64,000 nt of DNA. Source: an uncultured Bacilli bacterium. Lineage in GTDB: Bacteria > Bacillota_I > Bacilli_A > RF39 > UBA660. The stretch is taken from positions 40,865 to 104,864 of the forward strand of contig CANQVV010000001.1 in the NCBI GenBank assembly GCA_947627385.1. Direction: 5' to 3'. Both the position numbers and the translations under genes were made by a program. Of this stretch, positions 1,872 to 63,494 are shown in pieces. The notes beneath the pieces were generated by a model. It did not search any database. It saw only the letters and a list, made by a program, of their open reading frames with translations, and had not been told where the DNA came from. Numbering within the stretch: the stretch's first letter is position 1; each line of letters opens with the position of its first letter.

Positions 1872-2639
1872 TTATATCATAAAGAAAACAAGTAAACGGG
1901 AAAATTTTTCTATAAAGATAAACACTATTGTAGAAGCTGCAATTAAAAATGGACCATATGGAAGTTCATTTTTTTTGAGCAAATATATTGATGCAATTGC
2001 ATAAGGCATTGCTAAAAAAGCAGAAAAAACAATGGTTATTAATCCTAAATAAAAGCCATAATAACCATATCCTAAGGACACGCCAATTATAAAACAAAGT
2101 TTAATGTCCCCGCCTCCTAAGGATTCTCTTTTAAAGATTTTATCACCAATTATTTTAACAATATACATAAAAACAAATAATATTATTCCATAAATAATAG
2201 CTAAAAACATTCCTTTAAGACCAACTTCAAAATATTTTATTATTATAAGTAAAATTCCACTAATAATAAGAGGACTATCTAAAATAATCATATATTTTAA
2301 ATCACTAATAAAGATAATTAAAGTTAGAGATACTAAAACAAGATAAGTAGCATAATCTAGTGTTAAACCATAATAATAATATCCCCAAAGAAATAATAAA
2401 CCACTAATTATTTCTACAATAAAATGCTCAATAGCAATTTTTTGACCACAATGTCGACATTTTCCTAACTGAAAAATATAAGATAATATTGGGATTAATT
2501 CATACCATTTTAAAACTGTATGACAATGATCACATCTACTTCTACTAGTAATGATATTTTCTCTTAAAGGAAGTCTTGTTCCTACTACTAAATAAAATGA
2601 TCCTAAAATTGCTCCGACTATAAATGCTAACAAAATCAT
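1872..2639 (-). CDS. prepilin peptidase (A24 family, PilD/ComC-like)
   Basis: N-terminal CxxC...CxxC zinc motif (CDHCHTVL...CRHCGQKI) followed by a polytopic membrane domain. Confidence 0.8.
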   Translation of the reverse strand: MILLAFIVGAILGSFYLVVGTRLPLRENIITSRSRCDHCHTVLKWYELIPILSYIFQLGKCRHCGQKIAIEHFIVEIISGLLFLWGYYYYGLTLDYATYLVLVSLTLIIFISDLKYMIILDSPLIISGILLIIIKYFEVGLKGMFLAIIYGIILFVFMYIVKIIGDKIFKRESLGGGDIKLCFIIGVSLGYGYYGFYLGLITIVFSAFLAMPYAIASIYLLKKNELPYGPFLIAASTIVFIFIEKFSRLLVFFMI

Positions 2640-2647
2640 AAATACTC

Positions 2648-4210
2648 CTACATAATATCTTCATACATACCAAACATTGGTACAACAACAGCAATTATTA
2701 TTCCACCTACTACTAAGGCTAAAACACTTATTAAAATAGGTTCAATAAAAGATTTTAAATTATTGACAACATTACGATGAAGACCTTGATAATATTCACT
2801 AACTTTTTGCATCATTTCATCAAGTTCACCAGTTGATTCACCAGTAACAATCATAAAATAAGCTACATCAGGAACGGCCCAATGATCTTTAAAAGCCTCC
2901 GATATTTTTTCACCTTTAACAATATTATTGATGGTTCTAAACAATATACCTTTATAAATTTCATTATTAGTTATTTTACTTAAAATATCAATACTTTCGG
3001 TAATAAAAACATTATTTCTTAAAAGAGAAGCAAAAGTTTTAGTAAATATTGTCAGTTCATTATAAATAATAATATCTTTGATAACGGGAATATGCATAAA
3101 TAAAATTTGTAAATTTCTTCTAAATGGTTTTACATTTTTATAAGCCACGATAATAATTATTATAGTTAATATAATTATTGCTGAAATTGCTACAATATTG
3201 TTCTTTAAAAAGTTACTAAAATTAATAACAAATGCTGTTAAACCATTTAACTCTAAATCGTTTTTTTCATAAGTTTCCACAAATTTTGGAATAATAAATA
3301 TTAAGATAAAAGTTACTACTGCTAAGGCAAAAACACTAATAATTGCCGGATATGTCATGGCACTTTTCATTTGTTTACGAGTATCATCAACCTCAGTATA
3401 ATAATTAGCCATATCATCCAAAGTATCAGTTAAAGTACCACTAGCTTCGGCAGCTTTAATCATATTAATTAAAAGAGGTGGAAAAATATTACCTTGTTTT
3501 TCTAAGGCAGTTGAGAATGTTGCTCCTAGGGTAAGTTCATAAGAAATAGCTTGAAATACCCGCATTTTACTTTTCTTCTTAGAAACTTGTTTGGAAAGTA
3601 TTTTAACAGAATCATTTAAAGGGATACCTGCTTTTAAATAAGTTGATAATTGAGTTAACCAAAATATTAATTCTTTGGTACTCATTTTAGGACTACCAAT
3701 TGATGATTCTTTATATAAGAAATTAATCATTGGACTAGTCTTAATACTATAAACAGTATAGCCTTCATTAACTAAAAAAGCATTAATATCTAGTTTAGAT
3801 AAACCATTCATTGTACCAGTAATAATTTTACCATTCTTATCCCGAACTTTAAAACGATAAACATTAACTTCTTTACTTCGAGTAGCTCCGGTTGTTTGTA
3901 AATCACGGACTAATTCTTTATAATCTTGTTCTAGTTTAGCCAAAGTTTTAGCACTATAATTATAAACTTTTTCTTTTTTCCGGCGTTTATCATCATCCTC
4001 ATAAATAGTACCATAAGCTTCCTTAGTTCTTTTATAGCCTTTACCTAATCGCCAAGCAAAGAAATTGTATAAATAAACAAATAAATCATAAGTACTAGCT
4101 TTAAGGCCAATTAAAGCATAAGAAAAAATATAAAAAGGTAATAATAAAATATTTTTAAAAATATCGGTTATGGAAATATGTTTTTTTTCACTTTTATCCT
4201 TTTCTTCCAT
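2648..4210 (-). CDS. type II secretion / type IV pilus platform protein (GspF/PilC family)
   Basis: Cytoplasmic N-domain motif YRFKVRDKNGKIITG...EGYTVYSIK, then two T2SSF repeats. The first ~100 codons of the ORF may lie upstream of the true start. Confidence 0.75.
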   Translation of the reverse strand: MEEKDKSEKKHISITDIFKNILLLPFYIFSYALIGLKASTYDLFVYLYNFFAWRLGKGYKRTKEAYGTIYEDDDKRRKKEKVYNYSAKTLAKLEQDYKELVRDLQTTGATRSKEVNVYRFKVRDKNGKIITGTMNGLSKLDINAFLVNEGYTVYSIKTSPMINFLYKESSIGSPKMSTKELIFWLTQLSTYLKAGIPLNDSVKILSKQVSKKKSKMRVFQAISYELTLGATFSTALEKQGNIFPPLLINMIKAAEASGTLTDTLDDMANYYTEVDDTRKQMKSAMTYPAIISVFALAVVTFILIFIIPKFVETYEKNDLELNGLTAFVINFSNFLKNNIVAISAIIILTIIIIIVAYKNVKPFRRNLQILFMHIPVIKDIIIYNELTIFTKTFASLLRNNVFITESIDILSKITNNEIYKGILFRTINNIVKGEKISEAFKDHWAVPDVAYFMIVTGESTGELDEMMQKVSEYYQGLHRNVVNNLKSFIEPILISVLALVVGGIIIAVVVPMFGMYEDIM

Positions 4211-5192: not shown

Positions 5193-6298
5193 TAGTTATC
5201 TAGAAAATCTTTCAATTTCTTAGCTCTTGATGGATGTCTTAATTTTCTTAGAGCTTTGGCTTCAATTTGTCTTATTCTTTCTCTGGTGACATTAAATCTT
5301 TTGCCAACATCTTCTAAGGTATGACAAGTGCCATCGATAAGACCAAATCTAAGTTCAAGAACTTCTTGTTCTCTTGGTTGTAATGTTTGTAACACATCTT
5401 TAATTTCTTCTTTTAAAATTTCATTTTCAGTATATTCCTCTGGTGATAAACTGCTTTCATCTTTTAAGAAATCTCCTAAATGTGAATCATCTTCTTCCCC
5501 AATTGGAGTTTCTAATGAAACTGGTTCTTGACTAATTTTGATAACTTCTCTAACTTTATCAACAGAAATTCCCATCTTTTTAGCAATTTCTTCATCAGAA
5601 GGTTCACGATTAAGTTCCAAAGTCATTTGTCTTTGTACTCTAACCATCTTATTAATTGTTTCAACCATGTGAACTGGTACTCTTATAGTTCGAGCTTGAT
5701 CAGCAAGAGCTCTGGTAATAGCTTGTCTTATCCACCAAGTAGCATAGGTTGAAAATTTATAACCCTTATCATAGTCAAATTTTTCAACAGCTTTCATTAA
5801 ACCAATATTACCTTCTTGAATTAAATCTAAGAATAGAAGTCCCCGACCAACATAACGTTTAGCAATACTAACAACCAAACGTAAATTAGATTCAGCTAAA
5901 ATTCTTTTAGCTTCTTCATCACCATCAGCAATTCGAATACTAATATTCATTTCTTCTTCGGAAGAAAGTAAACTAATTCGACCAATTTCTTTTAAATACA
6001 TTCTAACTGGATCATTAATATTAACATCTTTGGTTATTTCATTATCATCTAAAATAATTGGCTCTGTTTCTAATTCAGCTGGATTTTCCCCAGCATCAGT
6101 AGCATCCTCAGCATCTTCCTCTGTAATAACTGTAATTCCTGCATCAACAAAGGAATTATATAAATCATCCAAAGAATCACTATCAATATCTAAACCTTTT
6201 AAGGACTCTGCTAATTCTTCAAAGGTAATAAAACCTTTTTCTTCTCCTTTTTTGATTAATTCTTCTTTTCTTTCTGCAAATGTTTTAATTTCTACCAT
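5192..6298 (-). CDS. rpoD: RNA polymerase primary sigma factor SigA/RpoD
   Basis: Regions 1.2 to 4.2 recognisable ([38 protein letters not shown]). dnaG-rpoD synteny. Confidence 0.95.
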
Positions 6299-12654: not shown

Positions 12655-14265
12655 TTATACTTTTTTTATAATATATGGATCATCTTTTGTTCCAGTTCCT
12701 AATAAAGTTATATTACTTGATAAATAAAAGACAGGTCTCACATAAAATGCTTGACCAAAATTATAATGACCAGCTAGACCTTCTGATGGACTATATGTTC
12801 CATTTATATATGATTGAGCATAAAAGGCATATTCATAATAATAACCTCTTCGAGATAATAAAAGTTCACTTTTTCTAACACCATTATTATTAATATGAAT
12901 CCAATTACTAAGGCCAATTGCAGGAGAAATAATATAGGTATTAGCATATGCTAAATAAAAATCAGAATAATTTAAAATACCTATTTTGGCATTAACAAAA
13001 TCGGTCCAAACATTATCTACTGGATAATAATATGTTACAGTTCCTTTATATCCCCCATTAGTAGCTACCGTTTCAGTTCTTCCCAAAGAATCACTTTCAG
13101 CTTTTACATAATATAATGAACTTTTTTTACCACTTTCAACTTCAAAAAAATTAATAATACTTTTAGTATTAGCTGTTACTAAATCACCATATAGCCATTG
13201 ATGATCTGATATCAAATCATACCAATTAATGTCTAAATTATTTGGTACATAATCATTATTATTTAAAAAATTTGTTCCATTTATAGCTTTGTAAGACTCA
13301 GTATCTGGCCAAATAACATTATCATCATAACTTCTTGACCATTGAAATAAATTATTTCCAAGTGAATCTTTTTTTATTATTTTTAATTCATTGGTAAATG
13401 TATCTATTCCCATTATCCTATACATATGATGTTCTTCATCTTCTAAACATTCATTTTTATTTGTGGTGCCAAAACATATATAATTATTCTTTATTGTATC
13501 ATTTGTACCTTGAAATCTTCTAAGAGTATCTTCTCTTTCAGCTGTACTTTTTAAATTTTCCAATTGAGTTGAAGAATTTTTTTCCAAAATTTTTTCTACA
13601 TCACTTTTTTCTACACTATTACACTTAATATTTGATATTTTTAAAGAAACTAATAATTCTTTACCTGCCAAATAAATTTGACTATTATTTTTATTGTTTA
13701 TTTTTAAATAACTTTTAATATCTTGACTACCATTAATATTAATAACAAAATCTAATGTAAAATTCATTTGACCAGTTTCTTTTAAATCATATAAATCTAT
13801 AAATTTGACGGAAGTTCCACCAGAAATAAATAAAAATGCATCATCATTTTCTAATACACTTCCCATACTATTTAAAGAAGTATCTAAATTAACCATAACA
13901 TTTACTGAACATTTATTTCTTAAAGTCAAATTTTCAGAAACTAATTTTGCAACAATAGTCTTAGCTTCATCATCAGAAGTTACATAGCTTTTACTATTAT
14001 CACTTGTTGAATAGTATGATCCAATATTTTCTAAAACCATATCAGAATTTTTCAAATTAATATGTAATTTACTTTCTAAACCATTTAATGCAATACTTTC
14101 TGAGGGTGGCATTTTAATATTAATGGTTGAATTTGCTACTGTACTTACAATATCTACATTAAAATATGCATACGTTGCCCCGATTACTAATACTAGTAAT
14201 GTTACAACTCCAATTATTGATGTCATTATCATTTTTCTTTTATCTTGATTACCATTGTCTTCCAT
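12655..14265 (-). CDS. secreted protein with TasA/SipW-cognate-type signal peptide (GATYAYFNV)
   Basis: N-terminus KRKMIMTSIIGVVTLLVLVIGATYAYFNVD matches the SipW-dependent signal class (TIGR04088-like). C-terminal GTGTKDDPY motif. Strong RBS AAAGGAG. Confidence 0.6.
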   Translation of the reverse strand: MEDNGNQDKRKMIMTSIIGVVTLLVLVIGATYAYFNVDIVSTVANSTINIKMPPSESIALNGLESKLHINLKNSDMVLENIGSYYSTSDNSKSYVTSDDEAKTIVAKLVSENLTLRNKCSVNVMVNLDTSLNSMGSVLENDDAFLFISGGTSVKFIDLYDLKETGQMNFTLDFVININGSQDIKSYLKINNKNNSQIYLAGKELLVSLKISNIKCNSVEKSDVEKILEKNSSTQLENLKSTAEREDTLRRFQGTNDTIKNNYICFGTTNKNECLEDEEHHMYRIMGIDTFTNELKIIKKDSLGNNLFQWSRSYDDNVIWPDTESYKAINGTNFLNNNDYVPNNLDINWYDLISDHQWLYGDLVTANTKSIINFFEVESGKKSSLYYVKAESDSLGRTETVATNGGYKGTVTYYYPVDNVWTDFVNAKIGILNYSDFYLAYANTYIISPAIGLSNWIHINNNGVRKSELLLSRRGYYYEYAFYAQSYINGTYSPSEGLAGHYNFGQAFYVRPVFYLSSNITLLGTGTKDDPYIIKKV

Positions 14266-26538: not shown

Positions 26539-27864
26539 TTAAGCTTCTTCATTCTGATTATTTTGACCTCTTTCAACATAAGTTTCATATTTTACTTCGG
26601 ATACTTCATTTTTTGCTAAATTATAAGCTACTGTTTTAGTACATGTATATTGACCACCAAAAACTTCAAAATCAACTAATAATACTAATTCATTATTTTT
26701 ATTTAAGTAAACATTTTCAATATTATTTAAATTATCATCTAAATCTTTCTTTAAATTATTATATTCTTCGGCAAAACCTGGAAAATCTTTAACTTCTTCA
26801 TACGATTTATCAATCAAAGAATTAGCAAATTCTTTCACTTTATCTTTAACGTTATCTAAATTTTGTTCTTTTAACATAACAGCAGTAGAAATTTCTTTAC
26901 TAGTTTTTAAGTCAACATTATAAGCTTTAACCCAAGTAGAACTATTACCACCTTCAATACTTAATATTGATAAAATATTATCATTAATAAAATATTCATA
27001 AGTTATAACATTTATTTCACCAAAGAAACCAGTTGCTATTCCATTACTATCATTAACTGCTTCACTTTTTAATTTTTCATTGATAGCTTTTACATCTTCA
27101 CTATCTATATTAATAGCAGGATATTCATAATAATTATGATAAGTTTGACCTGATATATTACCATAAACATCAGATTTTACAGATTTAACAGTATAAACTA
27201 AATTTTTACTTTCGTCTATCTTTTTAATATTACTCATCATTTTAGAAGTTTCAACTTTATTCTTAACTTCATCATTTATTAATTTTTCATTTTTAGTCCA
27301 AGTTTTATTAATTTTATTAAAATCAATTTCTTTTTTATCTGTTAAATTTAAATGAACAGTATCTTCTTGTTTTTTAACAAATATAATATCTTTTTGATAA
27401 TTTAATTCTGATTCTTTAACATATTCTTTATCACTATATCCCAAATTATATATTTTATGTGAATTTGTTGTAACAGCATACCAATTATATAAATCATCTA
27501 TTTTATTATATAAATATTCAAAAGTATATTGTTCATAAGCTGCTACTATGTTAGAAATTGGTTTATTATCTTTAATAGTATAAATCTTAGTTATATAATT
27601 ATTATTTAATTTAGGAAGAGTAATTAATAATTCTGGAACTTTATTATTATCTAAATCTATTAAAGTAACATCTGCTTCCTTAGCCCCTTCAAATGTTTCT
27701 TCTTTATTTAATAAATTTTCATAAATTTTAGTATAATCTTTATTACCATTATTAAATACTATGTAAATTACTAAACCAACAATAATTATAATTAACAATA
27801 ATATTATCCATAAATAACTTTTTTTAAAATCTTGTTTCTTTTTAGAATTTTTTTCCTTTTTCAT
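26539..27864 (-). CDS. hypothetical N-terminally anchored extracytoplasmic protein
   Basis: 441 aa. One N-terminal TM. No known domain. Confidence 0.4.
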   Translation of the reverse strand: MKKEKNSKKKQDFKKSYLWIILLLIIIIVGLVIYIVFNNGNKDYTKIYENLLNKEETFEGAKEADVTLIDLDNNKVPELLITLPKLNNNYITKIYTIKDNKPISNIVAAYEQYTFEYLYNKIDDLYNWYAVTTNSHKIYNLGYSDKEYVKESELNYQKDIIFVKKQEDTVHLNLTDKKEIDFNKINKTWTKNEKLINDEVKNKVETSKMMSNIKKIDESKNLVYTVKSVKSDVYGNISGQTYHNYYEYPAINIDSEDVKAINEKLKSEAVNDSNGIATGFFGEINVITYEYFINDNILSILSIEGGNSSTWVKAYNVDLKTSKEISTAVMLKEQNLDNVKDKVKEFANSLIDKSYEEVKDFPGFAEEYNNLKKDLDDNLNNIENVYLNKNNELVLLVDFEVFGGQYTCTKTVAYNLAKNEVSEVKYETYVERGQNNQNEEA

Positions 27865-38382: not shown

Positions 38383-39873
38383 TTATAAATGATAATATTT
38401 AATAGCATTTTTATCATCATTAATAATGATTTCTGTAAAATCATTGCCAAATCTTATTTCATTCGTTTTAAAAAAGCTATTATAAATAATATTATCTTTA
38501 AACATAAGTATAGTTGTTTCTATAATTTGTGGTAACATATCATTAGGAATCAATTCTTGAATATTGCAATTAATTCCTTTAATCATATATACTTTACCAT
38601 CAAATCCAAGACATTTTGTATACTCCTTTTCATAACCTGAAATAATAAAACTACCAGTTATACTTTTTTTAAAATTATTTATTATATCTAATTCCTCTTT
38701 ATTAAATTTATTAGGATTGATTTGAATAAATTCATCAATTATTTCATCTTTATGTTGCCATAAATAATCATCTATTACGTATAAATCCATTGGATTAAGT
38801 TCATTTTGTTTATAAATTTTTTTTATATTAGAAAGATGTTTTTTATTGTTAATATATTCTAATAGAGCAAAATATAATTTATAAAACAACTTAGCATCAG
38901 CAGTACTTAAACAAGCATTATCTTGTTCAATTTTAAAATTTTTTCGTAAATCAAGTGCTTTCTTTACTTCTTTTTTATAGTTTTTAGGCGTATATCCATT
39001 TAATACTCCACTTGGCGTCTCATCTAAGGCTTCTTTAATAATTTCTATTAATTTATCATCTTTAATAAATAAGTTTAAATGATCATAATCATAAAGTAAT
39101 CTAGCATCATCAATAACCTGAAAATAAAAAGTTTTTAATTTTAAATTACTCACTTCATCATACATTTTTTTAACCTTAATGTTTCTAATTGGAAAACCAT
39201 AATAAAATATATCATAATAGTCTCTTATATCAAATTTAAAGTTACCAGCTATTCCCAGTTCTTTTCTTCTGCTAAAAATTTCATCTAATTCATCCCAATA
39301 ATTTCGATAAAATAACTCTTCTTCCTCTTCATTATGGATATAAATATAATGATAATCTACATAAAAATGAAATAACGGATGTGCTAAATAAGCATTATAA
39401 GTTTTTTCATCCAATTTAAATATACCATTTAACATAGAATAAAAAGCTTTACTTAATAAAGTACCATTTATTTTAATAACACTAACCATAAAAGTAACTA
39501 ATTCATCATCACTTTTTTTACTTCTTTTATTAAATAATTTTAATGCTTTATCAACATTATCTATTTGTTCTTCAAAAATACTATATGTTACTTTACTAAA
39601 AATAAACTTTTTATGAAGTTCATCTATTTCCCATTCATATTTTTTTATATCATTTCTAGTTAATTTGTTATTTCTATTATATTTTAAAAATAGTAATTCT
39701 TTTTCTGTACAAATATGATATAAATAATCTTCTTGGCTATATTCCTTAATAATACTATCTAACATTTTAATTCTAGTTATATTATCATAATCTTTAATAT
39801 TGTATACAATTGCCATATAAGCATCATATATTATATCCTTAGGTAATTTTTTATATTCTTCTTTTAATTTCAT
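38383..39873 (-). CDS. hypothetical protein (496 aa)
   Basis: Large soluble ORF with no recognisable domain. Confidence 0.4.
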   Translation of the reverse strand: MKLKEEYKKLPKDIIYDAYMAIVYNIKDYDNITRIKMLDSIIKEYSQEDYLYHICTEKELLFLKYNRNNKLTRNDIKKYEWEIDELHKKFIFSKVTYSIFEEQIDNVDKALKLFNKRSKKSDDELVTFMVSVIKINGTLLSKAFYSMLNGIFKLDEKTYNAYLAHPLFHFYVDYHYIYIHNEEEEELFYRNYWDELDEIFSRRKELGIAGNFKFDIRDYYDIFYYGFPIRNIKVKKMYDEVSNLKLKTFYFQVIDDARLLYDYDHLNLFIKDDKLIEIIKEALDETPSGVLNGYTPKNYKKEVKKALDLRKNFKIEQDNACLSTADAKLFYKLYFALLEYINNKKHLSNIKKIYKQNELNPMDLYVIDDYLWQHKDEIIDEFIQINPNKFNKEELDIINNFKKSITGSFIISGYEKEYTKCLGFDGKVYMIKGINCNIQELIPNDMLPQIIETTILMFKDNIIYNSFFKTNEIRFGNDFTEIIINDDKNAIKYYHL

Positions 39874-40156: not shown

Positions 40157-40504
40157 TTAATCTTTTGCTTTAAAAATAAGTGTAAAGATAAAAGAAAATA
40201 CAACCACAGTTACAATTGCTATTCCTGATGAACATAATAATTTAGAAAACAATCCTAAAATACCGCCTTCTTCAAATCCAGCTAAACCAGATTGGTAAAG
40301 CATATGACCAAAATTAGCAATTAATGCTGTGGCCCCAGCACCAGCCCAAGCAACAATTTTATCATAGATACCTAAAAATGATAAAAAAGCTCCGATAACA
40401 GTAACACTACTTGTTATATGTCCTGGTGTTAGTTTAGTATTATCTAGTACTATTTGGCAAATAAGACAAACTAAGCCAGCAAAAATAAAGGCTTGAAAAT
40501 ACAT
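40157..40504 (-). CDS. spoVAEb: stage V sporulation protein AEb
   Basis: 115 aa membrane protein paralogous to SpoVAC. Third gene of the spoVAC-D-Eb triad. Confidence 0.85.
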   Translation of the reverse strand: MYFQAFIFAGLVCLICQIVLDNTKLTPGHITSSVTVIGAFLSFLGIYDKIVAWAGAGATALIANFGHMLYQSGLAGFEEGGILGLFSKLLCSSGIAIVTVVVFSFIFTLIFKAKD

Positions 40505-41478
40505 TATACTACCTCCAAACTAACGGCATGAGCAATTGCCGGAATAGGACTTTTTTGATTTACAAAGGTTGGACTATGTAAAGCACCAGTTCCAATAATT
40601 AAGATTTTTTTATATTTTCCAGAAGGAATAATTTTATTAAATAGAACTAATGGCAAACAAGCCGGACCTGAGCCACCCGAATAGGTGTCTTGACTTTTTA
40701 GATATAATTCACATCCAGCATCTAGATGATTTTTTATTTTTAAATTATATCTTCGATTTAAATATTCTTTAAAAATACTGCCACCAACACAACCAAGATC
40801 ACCAGTTAATATCAAATCATAATAATCAAGATTTCTTTTTAAATCCATTAAGTGTTCATATAAAGTGTTAGCAGCAGCCGGAGCCATTACTGCTCCAAGA
40901 TTATTAGCATCTTTAATCCCCATTTCACAAACTTTACCAATGGTAGCTGATTCAATTTTTATTCTTCCTTCTTCTTTTGATAAAAGAGTACTTATACCTG
41001 CTGTTGCTGTAAATGTAGAGGTATGTGGTTTGGGAGAGCCATATTCAATCGGATAACGAAATTGTCTTTCAGCACTTAAATTATGACTACTAGTAACTCC
41101 TAAAACTTTTTTGATATCACGATTATTTAAAAACATACCACCTACAATTAAACTTTCTGGAAAAGTTGCACAAGCACTATATATTCCTAAAAGAGAGATG
41201 GGAATATTATTACAAGCATAACTTGTAGCTGAAATTTGATTAAGTAAATCACCACCAACGATTAAACTAATTTCATCATATTTAAGACGATTTCTGTCTA
41301 ATAAACGATTCATTACTACGTATTGCATTTTTACCTCAGCTTTTTCAAATGTTTTTTCACCATAATAGTAATCATCCATTTTTAAATCAATTTTTTTAAG
41401 TTTACTATTACTTTCCAAAGGCCCGGATAAAGTTAACCAATCATTAATGTATATATTATTAAATTTAACACTAGACAT
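40504..41478 (-). CDS. spoVAD: stage V sporulation protein AD
   Basis: 324 aa thiolase-fold protein. Conserved position. Confidence 0.85.
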   Translation of the reverse strand: MSSVKFNNIYINDWLTLSGPLESNSKLKKIDLKMDDYYYGEKTFEKAEVKMQYVVMNRLLDRNRLKYDEISLIVGGDLLNQISATSYACNNIPISLLGIYSACATFPESLIVGGMFLNNRDIKKVLGVTSSHNLSAERQFRYPIEYGSPKPHTSTFTATAGISTLLSKEEGRIKIESATIGKVCEMGIKDANNLGAVMAPAAANTLYEHLMDLKRNLDYYDLILTGDLGCVGGSIFKEYLNRRYNLKIKNHLDAGCELYLKSQDTYSGGSGPACLPLVLFNKIIPSGKYKKILIIGTGALHSPTFVNQKSPIPAIAHAVSLEVV

Positions 41479-41920
41479 AAAAAGCCACCTTTAACAAAAT
41501 TAGAAAGAAAGCACTAATAATACCATAAACAATAACCGAACCAGCTAATTTAAAAAGATTAGCGCCAATACCAGTAACTAAGCCATCACGTTTATAATCA
41601 ATCGCTGCACTTTGAACACTATGAGCAAAGCCAGTTGTAGGAATTATAAGCCCACATTTAGCCTTAGATACCCAATTGTCAAACTTACCAATTGCAGTCA
41701 TAAATGATGCAAAAAGGATTAGAATAAATGCAAGCCACGAACAAGAGTCAACCCGTGATAAACCAAATGACTCCATTAAAATATTTACGATGACTTCACC
41801 AATAAAACCAACCAAGCCACCGACTAAAAAAGCAACGATGGCATTTCTTAATTTAGGTTCTTTTGGTGACATTTCTTTAACTAATTTTTGATATTCTTCT
41901 TTATTCATATCTTTCACCAT
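41471..41920 (-). CDS. spoVAC: stage V sporulation protein AC
   Basis: 149 aa four-TM protein. First gene of the triad, downstream of sigF. Confidence 0.85.
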   Translation of the reverse strand: MVKDMNKEEYQKLVKEMSPKEPKLRNAIVAFLVGGLVGFIGEVIVNILMESFGLSRVDSCSWLAFILILFASFMTAIGKFDNWVSKAKCGLIIPTTGFAHSVQSAAIDYKRDGLVTGIGANLFKLAGSVIVYGIISAFFLILLKVAFYV

Positions 41921-41953
41921 TTTTATTATGATAAAAAATAAAAATAATTATAC

Positions 41954-42592
41954 TTACATTTGTAAATATTCTCGCATTTTAGATATTCCCTTTTTTTCAT
42001 ATCTAGATACCATTACTTGGGTCATATTAAGTTTTTTGGCAACTTCACTTTGAGTTAAATCTTCAAAATATCTCGATTTAATAATATCTTTTTCTGACTG
42101 ATTTAAAACTTTAAAACTATCATAAATTAATATTTTAGTATCAAAATCAATATCTGTACCTATGCATTCATAAGCACATCGTTCATCTTCACTATTACTA
42201 TCCAAAGATAAAATACTATCGGCACAACCACAAGCCATTTCTATTTCATCAAGTGGTAAACCTAAAAATTCAGCCATTTCTAAATTTGTAGGTATTTTAT
42301 TTAATCTTTGGGCTAAAATATATCTAGCTTGTTCTATTTTTTTATATAATCTTAGTATGTCTTTACTTATTTTTAAATTTTTATTACTAGCTAATAGATA
42401 CATTTCTCCAAAAATATAATCATGAGCATAAGTAGAAAATTTAGTATTACTATTTTTTTGATACTTTTTTAATGCTTTAAGTAACCCTACTACTCCGGCT
42501 TGATATAAGTCATTTTTATCAATACCATAAAAATGACTTGCTATCTTCCAAATCATTTTTTCATTATCTTTTAATATCTGTTCATAGTTCAC
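41954..42592 (-). CDS. sigF: sporulation sigma factor SigF-like (compact, 212 aa)
   Basis: Sigma-70 regions 2 and 4 (TQVMVSRYEKKGISKMR). Sits between spoIIAA and spoVAC, as sigF does in Clostridia. Confidence 0.75.
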   Translation of the reverse strand: MNYEQILKDNEKMIWKIASHFYGIDKNDLYQAGVVGLLKALKKYQKNSNTKFSTYAHDYIFGEMYLLASNKNLKISKDILRLYKKIEQARYILAQRLNKIPTNLEMAEFLGLPLDEIEMACGCADSILSLDSNSEDERCAYECIGTDIDFDTKILIYDSFKVLNQSEKDIIKSRYFEDLTQSEVAKKLNMTQVMVSRYEKKGISKMREYLQM

Positions 42593-42596
42593 CCTT

Positions 42597-42929
42597 TCAC
42601 ACCTCTATCATATTTAAAGCTGCTTTTTCTGATGCCACCATCTTAATATGTAAACGTTTTAATTTAAGCAATACTGCATCTGGTACCTGACATAAAAATA
42701 TTTTGCCATTATTTTTCTTGATGATACACTTTGAATTTAAAATAGCATCTACACCCAATTCAGAAATACTTTTTAAATTAGCTAAATTATAAATTAAATA
42801 TTTAATTTTATGTTTAGTTAAAATAGGTATTAAATAATAATTTATTTTACTGCAACCTTTTTTGTCAAAATTACCATTTAATCTTACAAAAAGTACTTCC
42901 TTATCATATTCCAAATCCATTTTTAACAT
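42597..42929 (-). CDS. spoIIAA: anti-sigma factor antagonist SpoIIAA-like (STAS domain)
   Basis: STAS motif NLANLKSISELGVDAIL with a phosphorylatable Ser. Start taken at the ATG with an AGGTGA RBS, not the TTG used by the ORF track. Confidence 0.7.
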   Translation of the reverse strand: MLKMDLEYDKEVLFVRLNGNFDKKGCSKINYYLIPILTKHKIKYLIYNLANLKSISELGVDAILNSKCIIKKNNGKIFLCQVPDAVLLKLKRLHIKMVASEKAALNMIEV

Positions 42930-42974
42930 ACATTCACCTGCTATTTTAATATAGAACAATATTTTTTTATTTTA

Positions 42975-43010
42975 AACACTTTCGACAAATGATAGCAAAA
43001 GATGTCAAAA
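42975..43010. promoter_or_regulatory. putative Spo0A boxes (TGTCGAA on minus; TGTCAAA) upstream of spoIIAA
   Basis: TTTCGACAAATG...GATGTCAAAA lies 20-50 nt upstream of the spoIIAA start. Confidence 0.4.
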
Positions 43011-43032: not shown

Positions 43033-44388
43033 TTATTTAGTAAACTTATACCACAAAAGTAAATTAGATTTATCTACCGGATTAGGTATATTTGTATAGT
43101 TTGCTTTGATTTCTGATTCACTTAATGCTCGATCAAATATTAAAGCATCACTAAATGTTGCATATGCAAATGCACCGCCATAAAGGCTACCTGGATTGGC
43201 ACCTAAAAAAATTGGTTCAGTTGACCCTCTTATATTATCAGTAATTGGATAATTAGCTGTTTCTACTCCATTAATATATATTTTTATTGTTTGACCATCA
43301 TATGTTGCTACTAATGTATACCAAGTACCAATTTTTATTTCTTCACTTGAATTTACAGCTTTATAACCATTAATCTGTGGATAAAAGCACAAATTACTAG
43401 AACAATCTGAGTAATGATATATAAAGCCCATTCCAGCAACCTCCCAATTTCCTATAATATGTTGAGAATCACCTTCAATATTTATTCTAACTCTTGTTAT
43501 TAATGATACTATATTTTTAAAATCATAATTAGCAAGTCCTGCATTAACCCAACCATTTTTATTATCATCACTGGTTGTTATTCCTTCATTATCTATTTTA
43601 ACTATATTATTGGCTATTCCTACATTACCATTACCACTTAAATCTTCTATTATTGTATCTCCTAAATTGGTTATCACACTGATGGCACTCTTAAATGTTT
43701 GACCTTTGGTACTATTATCATAAGTTGTTGTATGAGATACTCCACTTTTCTCTTCTCCTGTCGATAAATCATACATTGCTGTATCCCCTTCATAATAATC
43801 TACCCATAAATATATTTTATAAGTATTGGTTGTATTTTTTTCAATACTAGTTCCATCTATTACATAACTTTCTCTATTATTATAACTACTAGTGGCACTC
43901 TTACTATCTAAATTCTTATTTAATAACTCTGAGGTTGTATTTCCTGTCGGTAACATTTGCAAACTAGTTAAATAATTGGGCTTTTTCCAAACCACTTCAC
44001 TTCCTGTACCTATCTTTTTCTTGACTTGGTATCTTATTTTACTACTTGCTATACTACTTTCTCCACTTTTTGTTAATGTTGTTAGTATTAACGAATAACT
44101 TACTTTATTACTACAATTATTTTTTACTTGTACTTTGATAGGATTTGTTATATTTGCTGTGGCATAACTATCTGTTACCGGATAATTAAATGGCAAACTA
44201 ATATTTCCACTACTATCATTGGCTATACTTATATCTATACAATCAGTTTTAGTTGTTATAGTTGAATTAGCTATACTTCCTGTTACATTTACTTGAAAGT
44301 AAGCATATGTACTTGTTACTGTTACTATTATTAATAATACTACAAACATTACTGCATATATTAGATATTTTTTGTTATTATCTTCCAT
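43033..44388 (-). CDS. secreted LamG (concanavalin-like) domain protein with TasA/SipW-cognate-type signal peptide (TSTYAYFQV)
   Basis: N-terminus YLIYAVMFVVLLIIVTVTSTYAYFQVN. C-terminal Laminin_G_3-like WYTLVATYDGQTIKIYINGVE...IFLGANPG. Start at the ATG at 44388 with an AGGAGA RBS. Confidence 0.65.
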   Translation of the reverse strand: MEDNNKKYLIYAVMFVVLLIIVTVTSTYAYFQVNVTGSIANSTITTKTDCIDISIANDSSGNISLPFNYPVTDSYATANITNPIKVQVKNNCSNKVSYSLILTTLTKSGESSIASSKIRYQVKKKIGTGSEVVWKKPNYLTSLQMLPTGNTTSELLNKNLDSKSATSSYNNRESYVIDGTSIEKNTTNTYKIYLWVDYYEGDTAMYDLSTGEEKSGVSHTTTYDNSTKGQTFKSAISVITNLGDTIIEDLSGNGNVGIANNIVKIDNEGITTSDDNKNGWVNAGLANYDFKNIVSLITRVRINIEGDSQHIIGNWEVAGMGFIYHYSDCSSNLCFYPQINGYKAVNSSEEIKIGTWYTLVATYDGQTIKIYINGVETANYPITDNIRGSTEPIFLGANPGSLYGGAFAYATFSDALIFDRALSESEIKANYTNIPNPVDKSNLLLWYKFTK

Positions 44389-44440
44389 TTTTATTCTCCT
44401 GTTTTTACAAAACAATACGTTTTATACATTTATATCTTAT

Positions 44441-44476
44441 AACATTATGTTTTAAAAATCAATATAACATTTTGTT
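44441..44476. promoter_or_regulatory. two palindromic operator-like sites AACATtATGTT / AACATttTGTT in a divergent intergenic region
   Basis: Perfect 5-1-5 inverted repeat at 44441..44451 and a 4/5 copy at 44466..44476, between the divergent XRE and LamG genes. Confidence 0.45.
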
Positions 44477-44510
44477 ATATTATAAAATTTACACAGAGGT
44501 TAAAAATATT

Positions 44511-44747
44511 ATGGATCGTTTAAAAGAAATTAGAGAAGACAGAAATTTAAAACAAAAAGATATCAGTAAAATGCTTAATGTTTCCCAAGTAGCTTATAGT
44601 TACTATGAAATTGGCAAAAGACAAATACCAATTGATATTTTAAAAAAACTTGCAAAAATATACAATGTATCTACTGACTATTTATTATATTTAACTGATG
44701 AAAAGAAGCCTTATCCAAAAAGTATGATTAATAAAGAAAAAAATTAG
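44511..44747 (+). CDS. XRE-family helix-turn-helix transcriptional regulator
   Basis: 78 aa. LKQKDISKMLNVSQVAYSYYEIGKRQIP is an HTH_3 motif. Confidence 0.8.
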   Translation: MDRLKEIREDRNLKQKDISKMLNVSQVAYSYYEIGKRQIPIDILKKLAKIYNVSTDYLLYLTDEKKPYPKSMINKEKN

Positions 44748-44767: not shown

Positions 44768-45451
44768 TTATATTTTCATTATAGTTTGTAATTTTTTTAC
44801 TATCTTTTTTTCAATTCTAGATATATATGATTGAGAAATACCTAACATTTCTGCTACTTCTTTTTGGGTATATTCCTCAGTATTATTAAGGCCATATCTT
44901 AAAGTCATTATTTCTTTTTCTCGATCATCTAATACTTCAATTTCTTTTTGTAAAGTTTCTTTATCCATTACTTTTTCAAATTCTTTGGGTACAACATCTT
45001 CGTCAGTTCCTAAAATATCTTCTAATCTAAGTTCATTACCTTCGGCATCATAATTTAATGTTTCTTCTAAACTTATCTCTATTTTTTTTCGTTTATTTTT
45101 TCTTAAAAACATTAATATTTCATTAGCAATACACCGTGATGCATAAGTTGCTAGTTTTATATTTTTATCTATTTTATAGGTATTAATACCTTTAATTAAG
45201 CCAATAGAACCAATAGATACTAAGTCTTCGATATCAAAACCTGTATTTTCATATTTTTTGGCTAAAAAAACTACTAATCTTAAATTATGTTCAATTAAAA
45301 TATTACGAGCTTCAATATCACCTTGATGAGCCTTAATTAAATATTCTAATTCTTTTTCTTTGGATAAAGGTGGTGGTAATTTATCAGTGGCTCCGACAAA
45401 AAAACAATCTTGATATTTTCTTTTTAAAAAAGCTATTATCTTTTTAAACAT
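44768..45451 (-). CDS. sigE: pro-sigma-E (sporulation sigma factor SigE) with N-terminal propeptide
   Basis: Pro-sequence ...LPPPLSKEKELEYL, then regions 2 to 4. Directly downstream of spoIIGA. Confidence 0.85.
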   Translation of the reverse strand: MFKKIIAFLKRKYQDCFFVGATDKLPPPLSKEKELEYLIKAHQGDIEARNILIEHNLRLVVFLAKKYENTGFDIEDLVSIGSIGLIKGINTYKIDKNIKLATYASRCIANEILMFLRKNKRKKIEISLEETLNYDAEGNELRLEDILGTDEDVVPKEFEKVMDKETLQKEIEVLDDREKEIMTLRYGLNNTEEYTQKEVAEMLGISQSYISRIEKKIVKKLQTIMKI

Positions 45452-45454
45452 ATT

Positions 45455-46204
45455 TTATTCCTCCAATAAATGATAATTAAGTAAACAATCGATACTTTCA
45501 AATCCTTTAAAAGTATCGGATAATCCTAGTAAATAATTTGTATAAATTTGTTTTTCAATTATAATATTTTTAACACCAATACAAGGAAGTAAACTTTTTT
45601 TATTAACAGTATTAATTGGTACATATATAGGACTTCTTATATTATATATGCCTTTTAATTTATTTTTATTTATTAAAATTATATATTTACCTGTAATTGG
45701 ATCTTTTAATTTATTGCCACTATCAATAAAACCATTTAAAAGTAATTTGCGATTATTTTTTAAAGTTATTGTAACAATTTTATAATAATTAATCATTTCT
45801 TTTAATTTTTTTTGCTCTTTAACATATAAATATAAAATTAAAGGAGCAAATATTAAAATAAGTAAATATGATAAATTATTAAATTCTAATTTTAAATAAT
45901 ATAAAAAACCAGCTAATATAACACTTGTCATATATAAATAAATAATATTATTAAAAAAATATTGGATATTTTTATAACCATAAGTAATTATTAACATTAA
46001 AATTGATGTCAATATTTTTAAGATAAATAAAAAATATTTATTAAAAGGAAGAAAAATTATTAAAGTAGATATGGCACCAAAAAAAGAACCTAAAAACAAT
46101 CTTTTTAACTTAGTATTTCGTTTCAAAGTAACACTTACTGTCATTAGAAGTAAGAAATCATAAATAAAATTAAGGATTATAAGTAAATCTATATAGATTG
46201 TCAT
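45455..46204 (-). CDS. spoIIGA: sigma-E processing peptidase SpoIIGA
   Basis: Five-TM N-domain plus aspartic protease motif GFIDSGN. Confidence 0.85.
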   Translation of the reverse strand: MTIYIDLLIILNFIYDFLLLMTVSVTLKRNTKLKRLFLGSFFGAISTLIIFLPFNKYFLFILKILTSILMLIITYGYKNIQYFFNNIIYLYMTSVILAGFLYYLKLEFNNLSYLLILIFAPLILYLYVKEQKKLKEMINYYKIVTITLKNNRKLLLNGFIDSGNKLKDPITGKYIILINKNKLKGIYNIRSPIYVPINTVNKKSLLPCIGVKNIIIEKQIYTNYLLGLSDTFKGFESIDCLLNYHLLEE

Positions 46205-62747: not shown

Positions 62748-63494
62748 TTACACCTGCATTATATAATAAAATAATTCTCTAAGATCTTCTTTCCTAATTT
62801 GGAAACTAACTCCATGAGTATAAAGTTGGGGAGTTCCAATGTTTGTAACCCCATCTTTTATGGAAATACAAATACTTATTTTATCATTTTCAATTAATTT
62901 TAAAAACTCAAAAAAACCTTTTAACTTGTAAATTTCCATTTTTAAATATTTATAATATTGAATATTATTATATTTATATGGATAACCATAAATAATAGCT
63001 AAATTTGTTAATTTTATTTTTAGTTTTGTTTCTAATGTTTTAAATTCCCAATAACATACATCTTCAATAAAATTTCCTTTGTAATACGCTTGAATTATTA
63101 ATTGTTGAATTTCATAATCAACTTTTAATCTGAATTCATAATCATTAACAGATCTTGTGTAATTGCAAAAAATTCTTCTTGAAAAATGCTTTTGATCTAA
63201 ATTACTTTTATCATTATAACCATATTTTTCTAAAATATAACGAGTTGCAAATTCATTATTTCTATATGGTGAACTTGTAAAAAGTGTAATTCTTGTTTTA
63301 GAATATCCCAATTTACATTTTAACTCAACACTTCCAAAATCTGGTTTACATTCTTGATCTTCTTTTTTATTTAATAAACTTTCAAAAGTATATCCCAATC
63401 CAGTTGTGCCTGTACGCAGTGATTTAATCAATCCTGCTTTTCTTATTTTTTTAAATTCTTTAATTAACAACGATACATCGTGATTCATCACCAA
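62748..63494 (-). CDS. MvaI/BcnI-family type II restriction endonuclease-like protein (solitary)
   Basis: Aligns by eye with BcnI along its length (TGLGYTFESLL vs VVGQILERQFG; PDFGSVELKCK...ITLFTSSP vs GDLGEFELKG...LTLFHKKP; ILEKYGY vs IFNRFGYV). Confidence 0.55.
   Translation of the reverse strand: MVMNHDVSLLIKEFKKIRKAGLIKSLRTGTTGLGYTFESLLNKKEDQECKPDFGSVELKCKLGYSKTRITLFTSSPYRNNEFATRYILEKYGYNDKSNLDQKHFSRRIFCNYTRSVNDYEFRLKVDYEIQQLIIQAYYKGNFIEDVCYWEFKTLETKLKIKLTNLAIIYGYPYKYNNIQYYKYLKMEIYKLKGFFEFLKLIENDKISICISIKDGVTNIGTPQLYTHGVSFQIRKEDLRELFYYIMQV

Follow-up and report, generated by a model that had tools for sequence, protein, structure and literature searches.

SpoIIAA, SpoIIAB and SpoIIE are counted as part of the universal core of endospore formation, and textbooks use them to explain how genes come to be expressed specifically in the forespore once the cell has divided asymmetrically. 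In Bacillus and Clostridium, the spoIIA operon begins with the gene for the STAS-domain antagonist, continues with that for the anti-sigma kinase and ends with that for a SigF-type sigma factor (spoIIAA-spoIIAB-sigF), with SpoIIE as the phosphatase. RsbV-RsbW-sigma-B and other GHKL partner-switching modules likewise place an antagonist of STAS fold upstream of the sigma factor. Not every STAS antagonist follows this scheme. RsfA of Mycobacterium tuberculosis lacks the serine, is redox-controlled and has UsfX as its anti-sigma factor, and HsbA of Pseudomonas aeruginosa binds the non-GHKL anti-sigma factor FlgM.

For the uncultured order RF39, a survey of KO annotations in RF39, RFN20 and ML615J-28 (Field, Bowerman and Hugenholtz 2024; PMC10868615) states, in its account of sporulation genes, that spoIIAB and spoIIE are reduced in presence or entirely absent, and predicts that sporulation takes place under 'markedly different regulation'. 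The statement rests on KO calls from few high-quality RF39 MAGs; the supplement mentions o__RF39 at least five times. SpoIIE is given there as missing from the sister orders ML615J-28 and part of RFN20 as well. Absence of the two genes at the KO level was therefore already reported, in one sentence of that account. Relative to the same account, what is new here is the retention of an apparently non-phosphorylatable STAS protein, its place in a two-gene operon, the compact sigma factor and the conserved predicted promoters. Spore formation in RF39, an order that has never been cultured, is itself a prediction; the transfer of RF39 sequence variants to chicks together with known spore-formers, observed in one study, lends it indirect support.

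The locus described here lies in a 64-kb stretch of DNA, which was analysed at its full length and is called the window below. Like the Bacillus and Clostridium spoIIA operon, it has a STAS gene first and a SigF-type sigma gene last, shows signs of Spo0A-dependent control, is preceded by a dacF-like gene in many relatives of the window, and is followed directly by spoVA genes with a forespore-type promoter. It differs in that SpoIIAB is missing from the operon, the position of the phospho-acceptor serine holds Glu or varies, the sigma factor is about 35-40 residues shorter at the N terminus, the promoter resembles a sigma-A type with 0A boxes and not a sigma-H type, and SpoIIE is reported as absent from the RF39 lineage (PMC10868615). 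The order of antagonist and sigma and the STAS fold are shared with RsbV-RsbW-sigma-B, whereas the GHKL anti-sigma kinase and the phosphorylatable serine are absent here and the context is one of sporulation. As with RsfA and HsbA, the STAS protein would regulate a sigma pathway without phosphorylation or through a non-GHKL partner; those two proteins, however, have an identified anti-sigma factor and no link to sporulation.

Gene order in the window

The window has a G+C content of about 25%, and its minus strand carries most of the genes. Read in the direction of transcription, the region of interest comprises ftsA, ftsZ, spoIIGA, sigE, a small XRE-type gene on the opposite strand, a gene for a LamG protein (460 aa), the STAS gene, the sigma gene, spoVAC, spoVAD and spoVAEb. 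The features that bear on the operon are as follows:

45455-46204, minus strand: spoIIGA, downstream of ftsA-ftsZ
44768-45451, minus strand: sigE, downstream of ftsA-ftsZ and after spoIIGA
42948-43007, minus strand: predicted operon promoter region, with three tandem Spo0A-box-like heptamers and TTTAAA-17-TATATT
42597-42929, minus strand: STAS-domain protein, a SpoIIAA-like antagonist homologue of 110 aa (Pfam STAS; NCBIfam spore_II_AA below cutoff)
41954-42592, minus strand: compact SigF-type sporulation sigma factor of 212 aa, with a GTG start
41924-41953, minus strand: predicted forespore-type (sigma-F/G-like) promoter GTATA-N18-CATAATA, starting directly after the sigma stop codon
41471-41908, minus strand: spoVAC (Pfam SpoVAC_SpoVAEB 96 bits; NCBIfam spore_V_AC 144 bits)
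40504-41478, minus strand: spoVAD (Pfam SpoVAD 346 bits)
40157-40504, minus strand: spoVAEb (NCBIfam spore_V_AE 99 bits; Pfam 79.5 bits)

The listed spoVAC ORF begins at 41920, and its likely start is the ATG at 41908 behind the ribosome-binding site GGTGA. The three spoVA genes follow the clostridial-type order spoVAC-spoVAD-spoVAEb, with Pfam scores above the gathering cutoffs; the Pfam and NCBIfam matches bear out the downstream triad that had been named in the first-pass annotation. With spoIIGA and sigE, the remaining early sporulation sigma cascade is encoded in the window, and both this pair and the spoVA genes are intact.

STAS and sigma genes as a two-gene unit

Between the stop codon of the STAS gene (TGA, 42597-42599) and the GTG at 42592 with which the sigma gene begins lie 4 nt, one fewer than the 5 nt first given for this gap. 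No gene fits into such a space, and the earlier remark that there is no room for spoIIAB holds. For comparison with sister genomes, one genome per species was scanned and 80 loci were returned. All derive from uncultured gut MAGs labelled 'Bacilli', 'Tenericutes' or 'Mycoplasma sp.', with rabbit, goat, human, chicken and mouse as hosts. They include Mycoplasma sp. CAG:776, CAG-776 being a genus of the family UBA660 in the order RF39, and Ca. Coprovivens, of the family CAG-1000 in the same order. As the highest sigma identity to the window among the 80 loci is 77%, the source species itself is absent from the representatives.

The STAS gene directly precedes the sigma gene in 78 of these 80 species-level genomes, at distances of -41 to +18 nt and frequently with an ATGA overlap. 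A spoIIAB gene stands between the two in none of the 78 operons. The comparison with sister genomes, which the first-pass annotation had proposed, therefore recovers the same two-gene unit, and the observation that spoIIAB is missing from the sigF operon extends from the window to 78 of the 80 related species. The accompanying premise of spoIIAB as an invariable middle gene does not hold in this lineage.

The flanks of the pair vary widely, and the pair itself is the invariant unit. Upstream lie dacF-like genes (in many loci), ssb, hsp20, genes for membrane proteins or others, and no kinase; downstream, spoVAC-D-Eb is present in about 49 loci and missing from this position in another subclade. 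STAS and sigma are co-inherited and, judged by order and spacing, translationally coupled. The wider STAS family was sampled by a search of 1.8 billion cluster representatives, which yielded 180 related STAS clusters. Even distant relatives (29-36% identity) have a sigma gene directly after the STAS gene, in these cases encoding 213-224 aa (P0126, P0161, P0206, P0215 and P0230).

In two species, the sigma and spoVA genes are present and STAS is missing altogether:

L034 ('Bacillales' MAG), 5814-6000: dacF-like gene, 187 nt, then sigma; no STAS gene
L073 (Ca. Coprovivens sp.), upstream of 5980: no STAS gene

The STAS protein is therefore dispensable in some backgrounds. When the sigma factors of these two species were compared with the others, their changes showed no clustered pattern.

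Search for the SpoIIAB kinase and SpoIIE phosphatase

A Pfam scan of the 60 window ORFs detected no HATPase_c, HATPase_c_2 or PP2C domain. We also derived a SpoIIAB profile, checked against the PDB, from the proteins of B. subtilis and G. stearothermophilus, and ran tblastn alongside it. Across the 64-kb window and about 700 kb of related loci, neither approach revealed a SpoIIAB-like gene (best E-value 0.02), and the same DNA yielded no GHKL kinase and no PP2C phosphatase. A relocated SpoIIAB just upstream of STAS was considered for the recurrent ORFs of 129 aa and 160-170 aa found there, and was rejected, as these encode hsp20, ssb and membrane proteins.

The positive control was P0270, a STAS protein with the canonical F-I-D-S-S-G-I-G motif encoded in a STAS-HATPase_c_2-sigma operon, in a genome of 27% G+C. 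Applied to this operon, the same profile returned E=9e-42, and the kinase is 45-47% identical to Bacillus SpoIIAB. SpoIIAB is thus easily recognised even in AT-rich relatives.

A STAS protein without the phospho-acceptor serine

The STAS ORF is listed as 42597-42959; the conserved start is the ATG at 42929 (MLKMDLEY, with the ribosome-binding site AGGTGA), which gives a protein of 110 aa. It scores 33.3 bits against Pfam STAS (cutoff 22.6) and 37.6 bits against NCBIfam spore_II_AA (TIGR02886), which does not reach the curated cutoff of 114.75 and is nonetheless the top-scoring family. Its closest PDB relatives are SpoIIAA structures (E=1e-7), and it aligns without gaps to 1TH8_B and 1AUZ. By these measures, it is the nearest counterpart of SpoIIAA.

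In SpoIIAA, the serine phosphorylated by SpoIIAB is the first S of D-S-S-G, the residue that is mutated to Ala in 1TID. The corresponding column, at the start of helix alpha2, is occupied by Glu in the window protein (SISELG vs DSSGLG). Among 79 orthologues, the column holds Glu in 60, Gln in 4, Asn in 3, Gly, Asp and Ala in 2 each, and a few other residues, with Ser in none. The Asp and Gly beside it and the next helix (D-A-L-L-N-T-K-C) are strongly conserved in the same 79 proteins, as is the beta3-alpha2 partner-binding face as a whole (N-L-x-x-L-x-x-I-D-E-S-G-x-D-A-L-L-N-T-K-C). The former SpoIIAB-binding face is in fact the best-conserved part of the protein.

The pattern recurs in 150 cluster representatives of the wider family, where the phosphosite is hypervariable (E, S, N, K, I, L, Y, Q, D, M or T) and the flanking Asp and Gly stay conserved. 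A minority of this family retains Ser, for example in the DSSG motif of P0215 and P0230, and the operons of these members likewise contain no kinase gene. Based on the residue at this column, the window STAS protein is predicted not to be open to control by Ser phosphorylation. Domain fusions within the STAS family were examined as a pointer to its partner, and none was informative.

Across the related species, the median dN/dS is 0.33 for STAS and 0.30 for sigma, and the median identity to the window protein is 50% and 54%, respectively. The STAS gene is kept under purifying selection and is not decaying.

A compact SigF-type sigma factor

The sigma factor encoded at 41954-42592 (minus strand) carries Sigma70 regions r2, r3 and r4. 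Its NCBIfam scores are 132 bits for SigB/F/G, 131 for SigF, 98 for SigG and 75 for SigB, all far under the curated cutoffs; for the SigF model TIGR02885, 130.8 bits compare with a cutoff of 321. The closest solved relative is G. stearothermophilus SigF (1L0O_C, E=1e-25), to which the alignment begins at residue 31. The match to the full-length SigF/SigG model begins at position 35 of 252 (NF004052), so that about 35 N-terminal positions are absent. What is missing is region 1.2 of the full-length group-3 architecture of canonical SigF and SigG. Together, the missing model positions and the late start of the structural alignment justify the description of this protein as compact. With the Pfam STAS match and the SigF-like scores, they sustain the first-pass view of a STAS antagonist abutting a compact 212-aa sigma factor.

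This size recurs widely, with more than 2000 homologues of 212-213 aa and all relatives between 212 and 224 aa. The housekeeping SigA, also encoded in the window, has regions 1.1 and 1.2 in their normal form. A zinc or redox site in region 3 was considered and rejected, as its four Cys residues are not conserved. Because sigma and STAS do not reach the curated cutoffs for annotation, annotation pipelines and sporulation predictors will mis-score RF39 genomes.

Additional sigma-like genes occur near some loci. Downstream of spoVA, one subclade has divergent sigma-70-family genes for proteins of about 300 and about 510 aa (L023:6876-8402, L014:10085-11978 and L011:5802-7994). They are RpoD/RpoS-like by NCBIfam, at scores far below cutoffs, and an assignment to SigG was rejected.

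Predicted promoters of the pair and of spoVA

Upstream of the STAS gene, three Spo0A-box-like heptamers follow one another on the minus strand with 3-nt spacers and a 10-nt period: TGACATC (43001-43007), TGCTATC (42991-42997) and a perfect TGTCGAA (42981-42987). After them come TTTAAA (42971-42976), a spacer of 17 nt and TATATT (42948-42953), elements that resemble a sigma-A promoter and not a sigma-H promoter. TGTCGAA occurs 5 times in the window against 2.3 expected, and a lone occurrence is not significant. In 72 of 79 species, however, it is found at a fixed position upstream of STAS, against a background of 0.095 per 280 nt. This conservation supports the sporulation assignment that the first-pass annotation had drawn from Spo0A-box-like sites; the TGTCAAA site that it had listed as well lies at 43003-43009 on the plus strand.

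In the anchored alignment, the promoter, the ribosome-binding site and the start (ATG TTA AAA) match up base by base in 72 species, with the consensus TTTTGnCAnCnTTTGTCGAAnnTGTTTAAAA...CTATATT...AGGTGA...ATGTTAAAA. Given the conserved tandem boxes, Spo0A~P most likely activates transcription of the STAS-sigma pair.

The second predicted promoter sits in the 33-nt spacer between sigma and spoVAC and leaves a very short leader before the spoVAC ribosome-binding site. GTATA-N17/18-CATAATA is present in 44 of the 49 related loci with a downstream spoVAC, and the copy at this position is the sole match in the 64-kb window. We take GTATA-N18-CATAATA to fit the forespore sigma-F/G consensus, and spoVAC-D-Eb is predicted to be driven from it. 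At the level of sequence, the conserved promoters and the neighbouring spoIIGA-sigE argue for a working sporulation cascade.

In-frame TGA codons in four species

In four species, TGA takes the place of a conserved Trp codon early in the sigma gene (L019:6043, L030:715, L031:6043 and L033:3559). Elsewhere in these species Trp is encoded by TGG and TGA serves as a stop, as in code 11, and genetic code 4 was rejected for these loci on that basis. The same four species are also without the Spo0A box, and in three of them STAS, too, ends in a TGA that shares the sigma reading frame. Beyond the in-frame TGA, the sigma ORF has a dN/dS of 0.10-0.15, a sign of strong purifying selection from which the gene can be taken to be functional. 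This suggests conserved UGA read-through, which could act as a translational throttle on sigma-F.

An apparent natural STAS-sigma fusion, P0105 (322 aa; L081:779-1747, NCBI GCA_037193545.1), was rejected as an artefact of code-4 annotation, since its junction codon is TGA while its other Trp codons are TGG. On the same contig, sigE lies directly upstream of STAS.

Regulation of sigma-F in RF39

We favour, with a probability of roughly 0.6, the reading that the locus is a reduced two-gene spoIIA operon in a lineage that lost SpoIIAB (and, according to the literature, SpoIIE), and that its STAS protein regulates sigma-F independently of phosphorylation. The first-pass annotation had put the choice as one between a relocated spoIIAB and an altered mechanism, and the latter is favoured by four lines of evidence. 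The phospho-acceptor Ser is replaced, by Glu in the window and never with Ser retained in 79 orthologues; the two-gene unit stays the same where its flanks differ greatly; no SpoIIAB-like gene lies in or near any locus, although the control was found at E=9e-42; and spoIIAB and spoIIE are among the genes that the KO survey gives as reduced or absent in RF39 (PMC10868615). If the kinase is lost and the STAS protein cannot be phosphorylated, the developmental switch of sigma-F must differ from the textbook one.

With the kinase/phosphatase partner switch lost, sigma-F would no longer be governed by phosphorylation and dephosphorylation. The STAS protein may have been re-used as a phosphorylation-independent regulator that works through the same beta3-alpha2 face as canonical SpoIIAA, either by binding sigma-F directly or through a non-GHKL partner. 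Our estimate belongs to the loss of the partner switch together with phosphorylation-independence. Direct binding of STAS to sigma-F is a tentative proposal that we hold to be clearly less probable; a literature search for STAS proteins that bind a sigma factor directly returned nothing relevant. Similarly tentative are two fuller versions of the proposal. STAS might, as a direct, phosphorylation-independent regulator of a minimal sigma-F, replace the four-protein switch of SpoIIAA, SpoIIAB, SpoIIE and sigma-F, or sigma-F might operate without an anti-sigma factor, under Spo0A-dependent transcription only, with the UGA throttle added in one subclade. A plausible evolutionary route would begin with the loss of SpoIIE, after which phosphorylation would be a dead end and the kinase and phosphosite would be lost in turn. 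SpoIIE is placed first in this route because the KO survey reports it as missing also from ML615J-28 and part of RFN20 (PMC10868615).

The alternatives differ in how much of the canonical system they retain. A SpoIIAB might persist elsewhere or have diverged past KO thresholds, with STAS still antagonising it through binding that is controlled without Ser phosphorylation. We consider this unlikely, though with a real share of the probability. The search covered the 64-kb window and about 700 kb of loci, and the lineage evolves fast, as the scores of sigma and STAS far below the NCBIfam cutoffs show; a similarly divergent SpoIIAB might escape KO thresholds. The strong conservation of the partner-binding face would also suit a persisting SpoIIAB, and M. 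tuberculosis RsfA is an example of a non-phosphorylatable antagonist that binds an anti-sigma factor. The phosphosite, on the other hand, is hypervariable, and an acidic residue at this position of SpoIIAA (S58D) blocks binding to SpoIIAB in B. subtilis. A kinase as similar to its Bacillus counterpart as that of the 27% G+C relative should have been detectable, yet none was found in the DNA searched, and the KO survey points in the same direction with spoIIAB reduced or absent in RF39 (PMC10868615). The sporulation programme might instead be decaying, STAS being a leftover in the course of loss and sigma-F either unregulated or no longer in the service of sporulation. Such decay could account for the two species that already lack STAS and for the four with an in-frame TGA in sigma and no Spo0A box, and it would suit RF39 genomes that are strongly reduced, in the neighbourhood of orders described as having lost sporulation repeatedly (PMC10868615). 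It is nevertheless improbable in view of purifying selection on both STAS and sigma across about 80 species, which persists even downstream of the in-frame TGA (dN/dS 0.10-0.15), of a promoter architecture conserved base by base, and of intact spoIIGA-sigE and spoVA genes.

Two further explanations carry little weight. Since the sigma factor scores under every equivalog cutoff and its formal top match is the SigB/F/G subfamily, the pair could in principle serve general stress, as an RsbV/sigma-B-like module, or consist of another group-3 sigma factor and its antagonist. That it is not a sporulation module is very improbable: SigF (131 bits) outscores SigG (98) and SigB (75) and provides the top PDB match, the synteny is that of sporulation genes, with a dacF-like gene upstream in many loci and spoVA downstream, the Spo0A boxes are conserved, and sigE-spoIIGA lie nearby. 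A frameshifted, collapsed or missed spoIIAB, the objection raised in the first-pass annotation, would make the structure an artefact of assembly or annotation. It is practically excluded by the 4-nt gap and by recurrence of the structure in 78 assemblies that were made independently, from different hosts and with different pipelines.

Under the favoured reading of a reduced two-gene operon, RF39 would be a whole order of abundant gut bacteria that kept a spo0A-controlled sigF, spoIIGA-sigE and spoVA when the kinase and phosphatase were gone, which would mean that the switch is replaceable. The order would offer a natural minimal system for asking what else restrains and releases sigma-F. Should STAS act directly, or sigma-F have no anti-sigma factor, endospore-type development would be compartmentalised without the supposedly universal partner switch.

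Other genes in the window

Several further genes of the window were noted in passing. The LamG protein encoded between sigE and the STAS gene (43033-44415, minus strand, 460 aa) combines a hydrophobic segment at its N terminus with a LamG/concanavalin-like domain at its C terminus. The XRE-type HTH gene between the LamG gene and sigE (44307-44747, plus strand) is listed with an ORF that overlaps the LamG start; its true start is probably an internal Met for that reason (MDRLKEIRE...). Elsewhere in the window lie a prepilin peptidase (A24) gene and a T2SS-F/PilC-like gene (entry coordinates 1872-4210, minus strand), which together with the LamG protein suggest a type IV pilus or competence-like apparatus. 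A gene for an MvaI/BcnI-family restriction endonuclease is located at 62748-63494 (minus strand). Three large conserved ORFs without a Pfam family, all on the minus strand, encode 536 aa (12655-14265), 441 aa (26539-27864) and 496 aa (38383-39873); the last of these comes after spoVAEb, as it also does in two of the related loci (L001 and L002).
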